NCBI GenBank assembly: GCA_034104285.1
Contig: JAXEEC010000056.1
Coordinates: 84,439 to 148,438 of the forward strand
Length of the DNA: 64,000 bases
Source: Candidatus Onthovivens sp.
GTDB lineage: Bacteria > Bacillota_I > Bacilli_A > RFN20 > CAG-826
Direction of reading: 5' to 3'
In this document: piece by piece, positions 59,459 through 62,852 of the stretch
Layout of the letters: each line of letters begins with the position of its first letter
Position numbering within the stretch: the stretch's first letter is position 1
Made by a program: the position numbers and the translations under genes
Notes under the pieces: model-generated
Told to the model about the DNA's origin: nothing
Databases searched by the model: none
Seen by the model: only the letters and a program-made list of their open reading frames with translations

Positions 59459-59700
59459 TAAAAATTTAATATTGCCTTACGAATTTCTTTATCGCGAGAA
59501 AGGTCATATTCATATTGTAACTGAATAATACTAAAAAATAATCGTTCAATACTTTCTTGGAGAAAACTATCATCACAATATTTTCTGGTCAACCAATACG
59601 CTTTACTCAAATCGCAAAAATTAACTAAGGTTGCTGAATTGTTTGATAGATTTTCCTTGATATTGCGCATCATTGATTCTATCTGATAAAAGTCTTCCAT
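59455..59700 (-). CDS. small hypothetical protein, homolog of 52180-52419
   Basis: The 5' end overlaps the A3 3' end. The likely start is an internal Met. Confidence 0.35.
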   Translation of the reverse strand: MEDFYQIESMMRNIKENLSNNSATLVNFCDLSKAYWLTRKYCDDSFLQESIERLFFSIIQLQYEYDLSRDKEIRKAILNFY

Positions 59701-61018
59701 ATATTAAAACCTCTTTAGATAATGTGTCCATATAATCTTCAATATATTTATATTGAAATGCTGATAAATGATTCTTAATATAAGGCATTAAGCCCATATT
59801 TTCATATTTCATTATCAAGAACTTATATTTAGCTTGCATAAAATTACAAACCGTTTTTGGAGGAATAAATAATTCATGAGTTGATTCAAAATTAGAACCA
59901 AGGCATCCTCCATGACACCATTGCTTTATTTTACAGGAATTACATCGAGGTGCGCTATTGCGATTCCACGATCCAATAGCTGAAAGAATTTCGTAATTCT
60001 CACAAACTATACCTTTAATTTTCCCATTAATTACTTCAAAATGCCCGTTGACAAATTGTGGATATGCGGTGCGATGACAAGGTACGATCGCAAGGTCACC
60101 CAAACGCACACATAAATTGGTTTTAATGGTGCAACACATGCCAAAATAATCGCGACCCGCTTCATCCAAGAAGCAGGGAATAGTAAGTGGATCATATGAA
60201 GCTGTAGTATAATATAATTGATTAGTAATTCTTTGCGCCATTAGCTCATGATTACCATGATAGCGGTTTTTAAAATTATCTTCAATGATATAATTTAAGA
60301 ATTTTAAGTATTCTTGAATTTTGTCATTTGTCCAATTGTCATCGCGCACTTCAAGCAGCATAAGGCGCGAAAATTGAAAATCATCAAGGACACTTTTCCA
60401 CCAGTTATAATTATCAATCCATTTATCGATGTTAAAAGCGCTTACCATTGGGTGAAATGCAAAAAAATGCTTATCACAAAAATCAATAAGAGTTTTATAA
60501 TATGTATCGTCGCGCTGGCCGCGAGAACGATTAATATCCATATATTTTCCATCAACTGATAAACTAAAATGCAATTTTATACCTATTGAATCCAATCGCG
60601 CCATCCAATCTTCTACCTCTTGGATTTTTTCAGGATAGGCAATAAAATCACCATCATCAGAAATTATTATTGCGCGAGGCTTATAATATTGATTAGCAAA
60701 TTTATCATAAAAAATTTGCATTATTTTACTAAATAAACCATCAATAATAAATTCACCAGAAAATAATGAGATATCTTTTATGAATTGTTTTTTAATATAA
60801 TAATCTAAGAAAATACCTAAATTGTTTAATATCTGTTCATCAGTTTGCTTATCTTCTGGATATAATTCGCACCCATGTTTTTTGAAATAACAATAAACAC
60901 AATTGGATGGACATTTTGCGCGAATAAATAACTCAATTCCTTTATTTGGATCATTATAATAATGTCTTTCTATAAAAGAAGTTAATAGCTTATTATTTTC
61001 AATTTGATATTGTTCCAT
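59621..61018 (-). CDS. radical SAM/SPASM-domain enzyme, type A (module 3)
   Basis: CPSNCVYCY. LSVDGKYMDINRS. CNSCKIKQWCHGGCLGSNFE. Confidence 0.85.
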   Translation of the reverse strand: MEQYQIENNKLLTSFIERHYYNDPNKGIELFIRAKCPSNCVYCYFKKHGCELYPEDKQTDEQILNNLGIFLDYYIKKQFIKDISLFSGEFIIDGLFSKIMQIFYDKFANQYYKPRAIIISDDGDFIAYPEKIQEVEDWMARLDSIGIKLHFSLSVDGKYMDINRSRGQRDDTYYKTLIDFCDKHFFAFHPMVSAFNIDKWIDNYNWWKSVLDDFQFSRLMLLEVRDDNWTNDKIQEYLKFLNYIIEDNFKNRYHGNHELMAQRITNQLYYTTASYDPLTIPCFLDEAGRDYFGMCCTIKTNLCVRLGDLAIVPCHRTAYPQFVNGHFEVINGKIKGIVCENYEILSAIGSWNRNSAPRCNSCKIKQWCHGGCLGSNFESTHELFIPPKTVCNFMQAKYKFLIMKYENMGLMPYIKNHLSAFQYKYIEDYMDTLSKEVLIYGRLLSDRINDAQYQGKSIKQFSNLS

Positions 61019-62261
61019 TATCTTTTATCCAATCATAAAATTCAAATAATCCATTGCAAAATAATTTTATATTATCATTCCAAAAGGTAAACATAGAGCC
61101 AGTGGTGCGTAAATTCCAATAATAACATGCGTGAAGGTTAATAAGATATTGCGCATGCCGGAACCTCACGGCCTCATTATCTTTGTATATGGGAGAAATT
61201 AGGCCAGCTTGCGCCAAATCATACATTTGACTCATAATAAAAGTCAATTCCGATGTTCTGAGGTCTTGTGCCACATATTTTATAATGTAATCATGTTCTT
61301 TGCTAAGATATTTACTTTTTAATAATTGTTTATATTCTTCTGGGTCATTTTCTTTTAACCATTCAAGATTGGCCTCATTATCATCCATAAATCCGGCGGG
61401 ACAAGGCGCCAAGGTGCCATCATATTTAAACAAAAGTTGTCTTGTCATATGGCCGCAATAATTAGAGGGATTAGTAAAAGATTTTTCCACTAAACACAAA
61501 GGAATATTGGGCAAACCATGTAAATATAGACTATAAGCCCCAAGCGCAAATTGTCTACCATCCTCTTGTGTATAATGAGTGGGAGAGGTCGTGGTAGGAT
61601 AAATCATAGAGTTTTCAATGCGTAACAAGACATTTTTATTGAGTGAAAAAGTTTCAAAAAATGTGCTTAAATCTTGGATGTGTTTTAAATATTCTTGATA
61701 TTTTTCTACATCAGTACAAAGCTAAAGATAAAATGCCCAAGGCAATGTTGCTTTTAAATTAATTGATATGGTTAAATTGTTTAAACACATTTTATTTAAA
61801 GCAAGAATAAAGCGTTTAAGATTTTCTTTTATCTCTATTGGATCAATACCACGAGTGATTTTATTAAATATTCCATCATAAGAAATCTGAATGGATAGAT
61901 TTAAATGTCGGACATAATTGTTAAAAAACTTAATAAAATCTATTTGTTGGTCAAAGGTAGAAAAATTTGTTGAATATGAAATTTTATTTATATTTGGGAA
62001 ATTATACAGTATATGATCAATTAAAGATTCTTCTTTATTAAAATATAAAGTAGGCTCTCCGCCCCAGAAATCAAGAGTATCAAAATCTTTTACATCATAG
62101 TGTAAAGAATGAATAGTATTTATAATATTATTGAAAAAACTACCATCTTCTAATGACTATAAAAGAATTTTATCTTGTTCTTGATAAGCAGGATTTTTAT
62201 GTAAATAACAATATGAACATTTTTGATTACATGAATTAGATGTTATTAAACTTAAAATCAT
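60999..62261 (-). CDS. radical SAM/SPASM-domain enzyme, type B (module 3); 2 in-frame TAG
   Basis: MILSLITSNSCNQKCSYCYLHKNPAYQEQDKILL(TAG)SLEDGSF...FWGGEPTLYF...TLPWAFYL(TAG)LCTDVEKY... joins the ORF-track piece 60999-61628 (CGHMTRQLLFKYDGTLAPCPAGF). Confidence 0.7.
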
Positions 62262-62852
62262 TTATGAGTAATCTACTCCCCAAGTACAGCTATGTTTTCC
62301 ATTAGGAAAAAGAAAATCTGAATACCACTTTCCAGTACCAACACATTCTGTGTTTCTTATGGTTTGATTATTTTGATAACGTTCATCATTATAATTTGCA
62401 CTATTGTCATGTGCATTACATGTATAAGCTGGACTATATCCCGCGTGATGATTAGTATAAGCGGAAGGCTCTCCTTCCATTTTGTTTATCATATCAATAA
62501 CATTATCATATTCATTAGCATTAATTAAATCATCAGCAAGTGGTATTTCTAAATTATATATATCGTCTTTGCTTATCTTATCAGATAAAAAAGCACTTGT
62601 TTGTAATTTAAGTAAATAATTTTTTAATAAATTATGGGGGCTTTCTGTATTGCTTGTACTTTCACCTTCACCGACTGTTTGCGCTGAAACAATCTCAGTC
62701 TTAAAGGGAGTGCCGAGTTGCGCTCGAGCTGTAGATCCAGCATCATTGCCCGCATAGTGAGCCGCGCGCAGTTTCTCAAGCCTTTTAAATATATCATTAA
62801 AATTATTCGCATCGAAATCATAATCTCGATTTGGATAGTTTTTCTAAGCCAT
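62262..62852 (-). CDS. precursor-like protein 3: conserved N-domain + Tyr/Asn/Cys/His-rich tail; 1 in-frame TAG
   Basis: MA(TAG)KNYPNRDYDFDANNFNDIFKRLEKLRAAHYAGNDAGSTARAQ...HNLLKNYLLKLQTSAFL... Tail: AYTNHHAGYSPAYTCNAHDNSANYNDERYQNNQTIRNTECVGTGKWYSDFLFPNGKHSCTWGVDYS. The ORF-track piece 62262-62492 is its C-terminus. Confidence 0.55.

Follow-up and report, generated by a model that had tools for sequence, protein, structure and literature searches.

The HXS anti-phage system pairs an effector protein, HxsA, with two radical S-adenosylmethionine (SAM) enzymes, the SPASM-type HxsB and HxsC, and with HxsD, a small partner of HxsC; HxsA carries HxS repeats and is modified at an SHRSS motif, and 99.7% of the systems are reported to occur in Pseudomonadota (Li et al., Nat Commun 2026, PMC13128918). 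A second well-described group, the triceptide maturases (XyeB, GrrM/OscB, FxsB, YhhB, HaaB and HtkB), forms three-residue cyclophanes (e.g., PMC11499958). Recoding of TAG to glutamine (genetic code 15) is, separately, known in gut phages (Borges et al., bioRxiv 10.1101/2021.08.26.457843; Peters et al., 2022, PMC9523058). Here we describe a phage locus that bears on all three. It lies in a 64,000-nucleotide stretch of contig JAXEEC010000056.1, from an assembly assigned to Candidatus Onthovivens sp. (hereafter the window), which holds three copies of a cassette made of a putative substrate gene (P), two radical-SAM genes (B and A) and a small open reading frame (ORF; S). Our subject is the third copy, module 3 (P3-B3-A3-S3; Table 1), in which B3 is interrupted by two in-frame TAG codons. 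On comparative sequence evidence module 3 is an intact operon in a phage that reads TAG as glutamine, and it is likely that A3 and B3 modify the disordered tail of P3. The cassette resembles both HXS and the SPASM-dependent maturation of peptides made on the ribosome and modified after translation (RiPPs), yet by its profile scores it fails the family tests for HXS, triceptide, ranthipeptide/sactipeptide and anaerobic sulfatase-maturating enzymes (anSMEs).

On comparative sequence evidence, B3 is an intact gene rather than a pseudogene, and its TAG codons encode glutamine. A first-pass annotation of the window, made from its letters, had proposed a B3 gene with two in-frame TAGs that is invisible as a single ORF. 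The frame does hold 420 codons, no internal TAA or TGA, and TAGs at codon 35 (62159-62157, KILL-TAG-SLEDG) and codon 180 (61724-61722, AFYL-TAG-LCTD); with the standard code, only a 34-aa and a 209-aa ORF are seen. Given the local 70% A+T, a run of 420 codons that lacks both TAA and TGA has a probability of ~2.5e-12, none of 20,000 shuffles reached such a frame, and the other two frames over the gene contain 27 and 48 TAA/TGA codons. Translated with code 15, B3 aligns with B2 of module 2 in a single BLASTP alignment of 444 columns that spans both TAGs (residues 2-413, 34.5% identity, E 3.7e-82), and with B1 of module 1 at 25% identity (BLASTP, E 7.6e-19). Reading TAG as a sense codon, as the annotation suggested, thus yields a radical-SAM protein of full length, with homology to B2 and B1; of the two observations it named as telling against B3, TAA or TGA codons within the frame and a lack of similarity to B2, neither was made.

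The window encodes a tRNA with anticodon CTA, labelled 'Pyl' by ARAGORN on the strength of the anticodon alone; we infer its glutamine identity from the interchange of TAG with CAA and CAG among orthologues. The closest relatives are two IMG/VR contigs of 162 and 176 kb (loci L001 and L002) with 88-94% DNA identity over the region and the same genes. Neither B3 TAG is conserved there: the relatives have CAA or CAG at codon 35 and, both of them, CAG at codon 180. P3 also carries a TAG, at codon 3 (62846-62844), which the first-pass annotation did not record; L002 has TAG at P3 codon 84 where the window has CAA, and L001 has TAG at P2 codon 33 where the window has CAG. The interchange extends to four sites in P3, B3 and P2, and the non-TAG codons opposite a TAG across the window, L001 and L002 are glutamine in every case (8/8). 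From the glutamine codons at both B3 positions in the relatives, and from the CUA tRNA of the window, we conclude that TAG is read here as glutamine. Synonymous changes outnumber non-synonymous ones before, between and after the B3 TAGs (totals of 63:21 and 90:56). In-frame TAGs occur in 16 genes of the window, and 45 of 85 related loci look TAG-recoded, their long-ORF coverage rising by over 5 points with TAG readthrough. Module 3 therefore shares with described code-15 gut phages a stop-free homologous ORF with in-frame TAGs in intact genes, a phage suppressor tRNA(CUA) and TAGs aligned with glutamine codons, and differs in nothing essential; here the recoded genes are a radical-SAM enzyme and its putative substrate.

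Both enzymes retain the conserved residues of their families. B3 scores 39.7 bits against Pfam Radical_SAM (PF04055; cut-off 29.5), which places it in the superfamily; its CX3CX2C motif comprises C11, C15 and C18, a WGGEP motif lies at residues 66-70, and every position invariant in a 72-member alignment of the B family (C11/C15/C18, W66-G67-E69, Q125-S127-D129-G130, C269, C287 and C379) is kept. The three additional invariant cysteines (C269, C287 and C379) suggest one auxiliary Fe-S cluster, of the twitch or partial SPASM type. Searched against the PDB, the B-family profile recovers an anaerobic sulfatase maturase (4k37, positions 12-368, E 2.5e-7) and also 8vpo, CteB, ChlB and SkfB. A3 is 45% identical to A2 (E 6e-144) and 32% to A1 by BLASTP. 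By its cysteines it bears the radical-SAM/SPASM signature: a CX3CX2C motif (C36/C40/C43) and seven SPASM cysteines (C296, C314, C359-x2-C362-x5-C368-x3-C372 and C391) that are invariant in 30 sequences, the first SPASM element (C296-x10-G307-x6-C314) deviating slightly from the canonical G-x4-C spacing. Its scores against NCBIfam SPASM (TIGR04085; 25.5 bits, cut-off 27) and Pfam Radical_SAM (19.8 bits, cut-off 29.5) fall just below and below the cut-offs, respectively. The AlphaFold2 model of A3 (predicted local distance difference test score, pLDDT, 91.3) finds anSMEcpe 4k37 as its best Foldseek match (E 2e-8), with CteB 5why, ChlB 9gm3 and SuiB; across these matches E ranges from 2e-8 to 1e-6, TM-scores from 0.5 to 0.6 and identity from 12% to 16%. 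The A-family profile finds CteB (5wgg, E 1.8e-9). Every PDB profile match, for A and B alike, is a radical-SAM enzyme that modifies peptides or proteins. The NCBIfam matches of A3 (PapB, QhpD, nif11-type, SCIFF, HxsB and others) all lie far under their cut-offs. These matches place A3 and B3, at the level of sequence and fold, in the peptide- and protein-modifying radical-SAM class, outside every curated family. With the solved SPASM/twitch enzymes anSME (4k37), CteB (5wgg/5why), ChlB (9gm3) and SuiB (5v1s) they have CX3CX2C and auxiliary cysteines in common, but A3 carries an extra helical stretch of ~70 aa at its C-terminus and lacks an N-terminal RiPP-recognition (RRE) domain, identity is only 12-16%, and B keeps three auxiliary cysteines. 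The radical-SAM core of B3 (residues 9-168 only) also gives weak matches to viperin, pVip and MoaA, far under their cut-offs; classification of B3 as pVip (PADLOC) was rejected, the similarity being that of a generic core.

P3, the putative substrate, was called a precursor in the first-pass annotation. Its gene does abut B3, the stop codon TAA (62264-62262) standing directly against the B3 ATG (62261-62259; junction TCATAAATG), but its product is a ~20-kDa protein and not a short peptide, with a helical N-domain (residues 1-128) and a C-terminal tail of 68 residues (129-196, SAYTNHHAGYSPAYTCNAHDNSANYNDERYQNNQTIRNTECVGTGKWYSDFLFPNGKHSCTWGVDYS). The tail is rich in Tyr, His, Trp, Phe, Asn and Ser, contains three Cys, and shows scattered H/Y-x-S/N triplets only. 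An AlphaFold2 model from a 43-sequence alignment (pLDDT 44.5) has helices at residues 15-33, 72-84 and 112-127 and an unstructured tail; it is too poor for a fold search and was used solely for this picture of helices followed by disorder. The N-terminus is polar (MAQKNYPNRDYDFD...), with neither a signal peptide nor any Pfam domain, peptidoglycan-binding domains included, and the protein has no match in Pfam, NCBIfam, PHROGs or PADLOC. A sulfatase-type motif (C/S-x-P/A-x-R) was not seen in P3 when read by eye, without a pattern search; in this P3 also differs from the substrates of the solved sulfatase maturases. Over 128 aa, P3 and P2 share 34% identity (E 5e-14), and P1 and others are reached through a profile. 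The P3 orthologues of the two closest relatives show 96% and 89% identity, and in each half of the gene synonymous changes outnumber non-synonymous ones; in two further relatives (P0006 and P0009, 73-77% identical) the N-domain is kept and the tail replaced outright. In all three modules P, B and A are neighbours, and they diverge together (34% for P3-P2, 34% for B3-B2, 45% for A3-A2); because substrate and enzymes co-diverge, each pair is probably cognate.

The gene order of substrate, B, A and small ORF, read correctly in the first-pass annotation, is tightly packed. A3 (start 61018) overlaps B3 (end 60999) by 20 nt, as also stated there, and the 5' end of S3 shares 80 nt (59621-59700) with the 3' end of A3 in a different frame. 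The S gene of module 2 would likewise begin within the 3' end of its A gene: extended to 52479, S2 would overlap A2 by 89 nt (52391-52479), mirroring the S3/A3 arrangement. This S/A overlap looks like a conserved dual-coding stretch, and the C-terminal tails of the A proteins are homologous to one another. The annotation had further described an ~80-aa protein after A3 as homologous to the one after A2; the size agrees (81 aa), whereas the homology is weak and depends on the alignment, hhalign giving 92.8% and 91.8% probability only when S2 is extended to 52479. S3 has orthologues of 95% (L001) and 81% (L002) identity and no family match in Pfam, NCBIfam, PHROGs or PADLOC; by analogy it may assist the enzymes as an accessory protein or partner. 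The proposal of a single HxsD-like family for all small proteins that follow A was rejected: they fall into several clusters with no detectable profile similarity, in comparisons that rest on very shallow alignments.

Upstream of P3, the terminator that the first-pass annotation placed before module 3 is found as a hairpin with arms AGCAGAAGTC-TTTTT-GACTTCTGCT followed by T8 (62979-62955). A scan of the region gives six terminator-like sites against 1.6 expected in shuffles, this one being the strongest; the terminator-like hairpin would end an upstream transcription unit. The TATAAT element put at ~62900 lies in fact at 62943-62938, about 40 nt away. It belongs to a promoter-like site ~85 nt upstream of the P3 ATG that is a consensus match only, such sites not being enriched across the region (33 against 26 expected). 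The TTGACT -35 box of this site falls within the 3' arm of the hairpin (62938-62979), so that terminator and promoter have sequence in common. An AAAGGAG ribosome-binding site stands 8 nt 5' of the P3 ATG (62852). Module 3 lacks the accessory genes of the other two modules, as the annotation had noted: no homologue of X2, Y2, U2a, U2b, M1a or M1b is found within 59455-62852.

The association of the enzymes with P-type genes extends well beyond the window. In what follows, genes of related loci are simple longest-ORF calls, and IMG/VR 'viral' labels and the binning of metagenome-assembled genomes (MAGs) were taken as given. Searching with a profile built from A1-A3 yields at least 344 protein clusters (30-48% identity), many of them from contigs 130-290 kb long, and a scan of IMG/VR finds at least 133 stretches with a B-A pair or A-family member, from which 78 loci were retrieved. 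B adjoins A in 83 of 85 loci, usually with substrate-like gene(s) ahead of B-A and a small ORF behind. At least 47 of the 85 have a neighbouring gene whose product shows a P-type N-domain, a tail densely set with [YHFW]-x-[SNTG] motifs, or both. Clustered at 90% identity, the N-domain family has 62 clusters; at 50% identity it has 403 representatives, of which 173 reach E <= 1e-10. The best 150 of the 403 are 74-263 aa long save two (332 and 373 aa), and their matches mostly begin at residue 1 or within a few residues of it. Substrates elsewhere may be far more regular than P3: locus L039 encodes two proteins of 538 and 497 aa that consist almost wholly of SGHL, SSHY and SGYN units, the L006 substrate carries YDSS, HLSS and HLSG arrays, and the L008 substrate has HSNG arrays after an N-terminus resembling those of P2 and P3. 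Relatives also bear SHLSS/SHLSG arrays resembling the modified SHRSS motif of HxsA. The P orthologue of L012 has no Cys at all, which points to the aromatic motif, and not Cys, as the shared feature. A cysteine at the domain-tail junction (C-x-x-H/Y/D) was considered as a universal modification site and rejected, being present in 21 of 38 substrates and absent from the L012 protein.

Other modification genes accompany the cassette in these loci. In 13 of 84 related loci a YcaO gene (PF02624, E 1e-30 to 1e-36) stands directly 5' of the substrate-B-A cassette. One of these loci is L012, which, once the window phage's own lineage is set aside, ranks with the closest relatives of modules 2 and 3; the 64-kb window itself has no YcaO gene. 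Ten loci encode a protein combining radical SAM and glycosyltransferase family 2 (GT2) parts, as read from the sequence without family-search confirmation, and in L006 and L007 B is fused to a glycosyltransferase. In 28 loci, proteins like X2 of module 2 (280-315 aa) are encoded 3' of B and A, frequently as a side-by-side pair of paralogues. A sequence search of the PDB gives no match for the X2 family; Peptidase_U32 is matched weakly by 3 of 10 members (best E 7.5e-4), and C190, C194 and C231 are invariant. These traits recall the UbiU/UbiV type of Fe-S, O2-independent hydroxylase pair. In eight of the loci examined, the cassette stands directly 3' of tail genes (Table 1).

The cassette family is nearly confined to phage contigs. 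A scan of 185,579 species genomes recovered at least six loci, all on MAG contigs and mostly from Bacillota; its patterns were narrow and built from three sequences, and six is a lower bound. The DnaB helicase of the window is 41% identical to those of Enterococcus and Bacillus phages, and the phage, ~160-176 kb in size and 32.5% G+C, probably has a host in the Bacillota. Module 3 DNA finds nothing among GenBank phages by blastn, and A3 gives a single tblastn match there, in a Campylobacter phage at 21% identity; there is therefore no annotated phage relative. The recoded phAss-1 phages were considered as kin and rejected as unrelated (44% GC, radical SAM unmentioned). In the open-access literature on phage radical-SAM/SPASM cassettes, triceptides, RiPPs and YcaO we found this two-radical-SAM cassette nowhere described; a description may exist beyond it.

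In the mechanism we propose, module 3 would be transcribed from the promoter-like site at 62966-62938. Translation of P3 and B3 depends, as their TAG codons show, on suppression by the phage tRNA(CUA), and the TAAATG junction, together with the 20-nt and 80-nt overlaps, may couple translation along the operon. P3 would be the substrate, as its genomic context suggests. Its helical N-domain (~128 aa) would act as a long leader or docking domain for the enzymes, possibly through S3, which by analogy may partner one of them as HxsD does HxsC. A3 and B3 would then install radical cross-links or oxidations in P3 residues 129-196. A3 would contribute as a SPASM enzyme with two predicted auxiliary clusters, from the peptide- and protein-cross-linking class; B3, with one probable auxiliary cluster, belongs to a family whose profile resembles anaerobic sulfatase maturase. 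The most likely chemistry, to judge from these families and the composition of the tail, would be cross-links from aromatic rings to side-chain carbons (cyclophane type) and/or oxidation of Ser or Cys. Several known chemistries would be compatible: aromatic-to-C-beta cyclophanes (PMC11499958), an HXS-like +8 Da modification, Ser-to-formylglycine conversion by the anSME-like B and, where Cys is present, thioethers. The product may be a rigid, protease-resistant C-terminal knot still joined to the N-domain; since the module has no protease or exporter gene, it would presumably stay a ~20-kDa protein.

How far the cassette departs from described maturases can be read from the family models. Like triceptide systems, it sets a SPASM enzyme beside a substrate with repeated aromatic-x-x triplets, in which Tyr, His, Phe or Trp is followed two residues later by Ser, Asn, Lys or Arg. 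The XyeB, GrrM, FxsB, YhhB and AmcB models, however, give only E 1e-4 to 0.08 and 12-27 bits against cut-offs of 310-450; the second radical-SAM enzyme, B, is always present here, the 'leader' runs to ~120-130 aa, substrates reach 500-600 aa, there is no leader protease or exporter, and the location is a phage. For the ranthipeptide/sactipeptide group, the PapB model scores 34.7 bits with A3 and 60.5 bits with A1 against a cut-off of 340, and the Cys-free L012 substrate means that thioethers (PapB, CteB type) cannot be the shared chemistry. The anSME model (TIGR03942) scores 33.3 bits with B2 and 21.2 bits with B3 against a cut-off of 349.

Among other readings of module 3, the one that survives best, though we think it unlikely, is that of a true RiPP cluster, in which the P3 leader is cleaved and lysis sets free the small cross-linked core as a toxin or signal. 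Helices of leader type ahead of a disordered, hypervariable core, SPASM maturase-like enzymes and the YcaO genes of related loci are what such a cluster would be expected to contain. Module 1 adjoins an endolysin (PG_binding_1) and a small ORF with a transmembrane segment, holin-like by eye, so that lysis could stand in for an exporter. On the other hand, no protease, C39-ABC exporter or immunity gene occurs in the three modules, and the substrates of other loci, reaching 500-600 aa or fused to a LamG lectin domain, are proteins and not peptides. Nor was a conserved double-Gly type cleavage site seen by eye in the P-family alignments; many members, though not all, have the junction Cys in its place.

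Somewhat less probable still is that module 3 is a phage-borne counterpart of HXS, whose matured P protein blocks DNA entry by competing phages and so brings about superinfection exclusion. The parts correspond: two radical-SAM enzymes, one of them SPASM, a small protein, and a ~200-aa effector-like substrate with a His/aromatic-x-Ser region whose large N-terminal part is kept, the product in both cases being a matured protein and not a short peptide, as we suppose for P3. The SHLSS/SHLSG arrays of relatives resemble the HxsA motif (PMC13128918), and three diversified copies per genome would suit an arms race. Module 3 thus matches the four-part organization of HXS, in architecture alone. The HxsB (TIGR03978) and HxsC (TIGR03977) models give B3 23.3 and 19 bits against cut-offs of 370 and 267.9, and A2 reaches 12.9 bits against the same cut-offs. 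P3, moreover, has no signal peptide, peptidoglycan-binding domain or tandem HxS repeats, the order is P-B-A-S here and D-B-C-A in HXS, and the cassette is phage-encoded, in three paralogues, TAG-recoded, associated with Bacillota and, in other phages, found 3' of tail genes, whereas HXS sits on Pseudomonadota chromosomes.

Phages use radical-SAM enzymes for nucleotide and DNA modification, and B3 and A3 might therefore act on a small molecule, a nucleotide (as viperin does) or a nucleic acid, P3 being an unrelated structural neighbour. We regard this as improbable. The weak viperin, pVip and MoaA matches of B3 would speak for it, as would the fact that the interaction of P3 with the enzymes is drawn from context. 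Those matches, however, concern the generic core, while the full-length sequence and fold matches are to SPASM enzymes that modify proteins or peptides; P-type or motif-rich genes accompany and co-diverge with the enzyme pair, and YcaO, a peptide-backbone-modifying family, joins the cassette in 13 loci. The weakest reading, that two nonsense mutations made B3 a pseudogene in a decaying duplicate, can draw on the standard-code break into two short ORFs and on module 3 being the shortest module and having no accessory genes, but is close to refuted by the window's own tRNA(CUA), the CAA/CAG codons of orthologues and the interchange at four sites, the improbably long open frame, the excess of synonymous changes on every side of the TAGs, the retention of every invariant catalytic residue, and the TAGs of the other window genes and related loci.

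Several observations weigh against the reading we prefer, of an intact operon whose enzymes modify the P3 tail. The P3 tail is a degenerate form of the clean repeats found in other loci. NCBIfam peptide-maturase matches amount to just 12-60 bits against cut-offs of 170-650, and neither A3 nor B3 has a recognizable N-terminal RRE domain, the CX3CX2C motif beginning at residue 36 in A3 and at residue 11 in B3. The kinship of S3 and S2 drops to 0.7% probability with another alignment and is not seen by BLASTP, the small proteins that follow A in other loci show no detectable kinship with one another, and the gene calls of related loci are crude. As to function, the modules of the window do not stand beside identified tail genes; TAG occurs in non-structural genes too, so that its presence does not show late expression; and the absence of a signal peptide from P3 argues against a periplasmic role like that of HXS.

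For the biological role of the matured protein, the tail-gene synteny of other phages favors the virion or host interaction, and a late-expressed, tail- or virion-associated or otherwise host-interacting protein is the role we tentatively put first, at somewhat under an even chance. Release of the product at lysis seems a weaker candidate, and an HXS-like exclusion effector a weaker one again.

Module 3 has a long history within its phage group. A3 shares 45-46% identity with A2 and with the only A protein of the related phages L009 and L012, while these three are 48-53% identical to one another and A1 is 32-38% identical to all four; P and B repeat the pattern. Within the module 2 clade, module 3 is therefore a branch of long standing and not a recent duplicate, so that the 'compact copy' of the first-pass annotation is better described as an old, diverged paralogue. 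All three modules are kept in the two closest phages (L001 with L058; L002 with L049). Module 3 sits 2.5 kb upstream of U2b, U2a and module 2, and, having no X, Y or U2 homologues of its own, could use the accessory genes of module 2 in trans. U2b accompanies the cassette in L009-L012; it has a weak UPF0489 match (E 2.8e-4, below the cut-off) and an IDHHHD motif, and may be a metal-dependent hydrolase of the arginase/deacetylase type.

Table 1. Features of module 3, of the paralogous modules and of related loci. Coordinates are positions in the window unless a locus is named.
Feature	Location	Strand	Description
Module 3 operon, P3-B3-A3-S3		all genes minus	third copy of the cassette in the window
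P3, putative substrate protein	62262-62852	minus	196 aa; ORF with TAG read through
B3, radical-SAM enzyme	60999-62261	minus	420 aa; TAG-readthrough frame ending in TGA
A3, radical-SAM/SPASM enzyme	59621-61018	minus	465 aa; ORF and motifs
S3, small helical protein	59455-59700	minus	81 aa; ORF
tRNA-Ser(TGA)	59292-59381	minus	directly 3' of S3; 3' boundary of module 3
Intrinsic-terminator-like hairpin	62955-62979	minus	10-bp stem, 5 GC pairs, 5-nt loop, then T8
Sigma-70-type promoter-like site	62938-62966	minus	TTGACT-17-TG-n-TATAAT; 11/12 consensus matches, extended -10 TG
tRNA-Gly(TCC)	63602-63675		
tRNA with anticodon CTA	41443-41517	minus	reads UAG; ARAGORN
Module 2	50714-56933	minus	paralogous module, with accessory genes U2b and U2a
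P2	55190-55813	minus	module 2
B2	53838-55184	minus	module 2
A2	52391-53872	minus	module 2
S2	52180-52419 (or to 52479)	minus	module 2
X2	51262-52167	minus	module 2
Y2	50714-51286	minus	module 2
U2b	56211-56933		240 aa
Module 1	20823-25494	minus	paralogous module, much more diverged; includes M1a and M1b
P1	24862-25494	minus	module 1
B1	22515-23840	minus	module 1
S1	22218-22508	minus	module 1
A1	20823-22208	minus	module 1
Non-structural TAG-bearing genes	8671-9642; 9639-10400; 25750-26616; 29694-30329; 40120-41115		
YcaO genes, examples	L012 5823-7634; L014 5347-7266; L036 5766-7571		and 10 further loci
X2-like loci, including	L023, L024, L025, L041, L053, L068, L069, L080		
Tape measure upstream	L064, L072		PF10145
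Tail-fibre-like gene upstream	L054		central-fibre-J-like
Tail-fibre-like gene upstream	L066		fn3/End_tail_spike
Tail-fibre-like gene upstream	L070		DUF2793 and phage-tail repeat
Tail lysozyme and M23 upstream	L022		
LamG_3 proteins upstream	L060, L048		

Further observations concern the surroundings of these genes. The two tRNA genes for Gly and Ser flank module 3 on both sides; a 128-aa code-15 ORF (63275-63661) overruns the tRNA-Gly gene, and its upstream part is thus probably spurious. TAGs occur not just in structural and lysis genes of the window but also in a gene that Pfam identifies as PIN/PhoH and in others whose sequences, by eye, resemble GIY-YIG endonucleases, Zn-ribbon endonucleases, kinases and nucleotidyltransferases (Table 1). 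The notion of TAG as a marker of late or structural genes in the window was rejected, given the TAGs of the endonuclease-, kinase- and PhoH-like genes. By eye, an 81-aa protein (58040-58285) looks like a paralogue of the N-terminal portion of a 142-aa coiled-coil protein (28603-29031), with which it shares a ...C(D)TE.DLK.I... motif; both contain TAGs, and the nearest radical-SAM module lies 2.2-3.1 kb away. In locus L006 (JGI 3300031952 Ga0315294_10000005, 291 kb; 4642-9341), the fusion of B to a glycosyltransferase is 830 aa long, and the 255-aa protein upstream is a near-pure Y/H-x-S-S array. The contig also encodes TatA/TatC, RNase Y, a two-component system and type II secretion system E/F proteins, and is possibly cellular or a very large phage. 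Locus L048 (6361-8142) has a 594-aa substrate fused to a Laminin_G_3 lectin domain (E 8e-15), in the order Laminin_G_3, conserved recognition motif, Cys-x-x-His-Tyr junction and H/Y-x-[ST] repeats; its gene comes right after that of an 893-aa protein that is tail-fibre-like by eye, without a Pfam or PHROG match.

As a recoded gene, the seemingly broken B3 is an ordinary, well-controlled case of code 15, and the recoding itself is already known; it illustrates how standard ORF calling conceals functional enzymes in recoded phages. The interest of the locus, which we would rate as moderate, lies more in the wider cassette family, which pairs two radical-SAM enzymes with protein-sized aromatic-x-Ser substrates by the same logic as HXS (PMC13128918) and offers new radical-SAM chemistry on repeat substrates. 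A broader and more speculative reading, which we hold as a possibility and no firmer, is that P-B-A-S cassettes define a class of phage proteins matured by two radical-SAM enzymes for which we found no published description, each bearing a hypervariable, cross-linked, aromatic- and Ser-rich knot on a long helical docking domain, and serving either as a tail-associated knot for host recognition or armour, or as an HXS-like blocker of DNA entry. If so, three diversified cassettes would provide each phage with a multi-specificity arsenal, to which the YcaO, U32-like and glycosyltransferase genes of related loci would add chemistry. Should the products prove to be virion or host-interaction proteins, radical-SAM cross-linking would represent a new form of phage protein maturation; should they be HXS-like, phages would possess their own version of a bacterial anti-phage effector.

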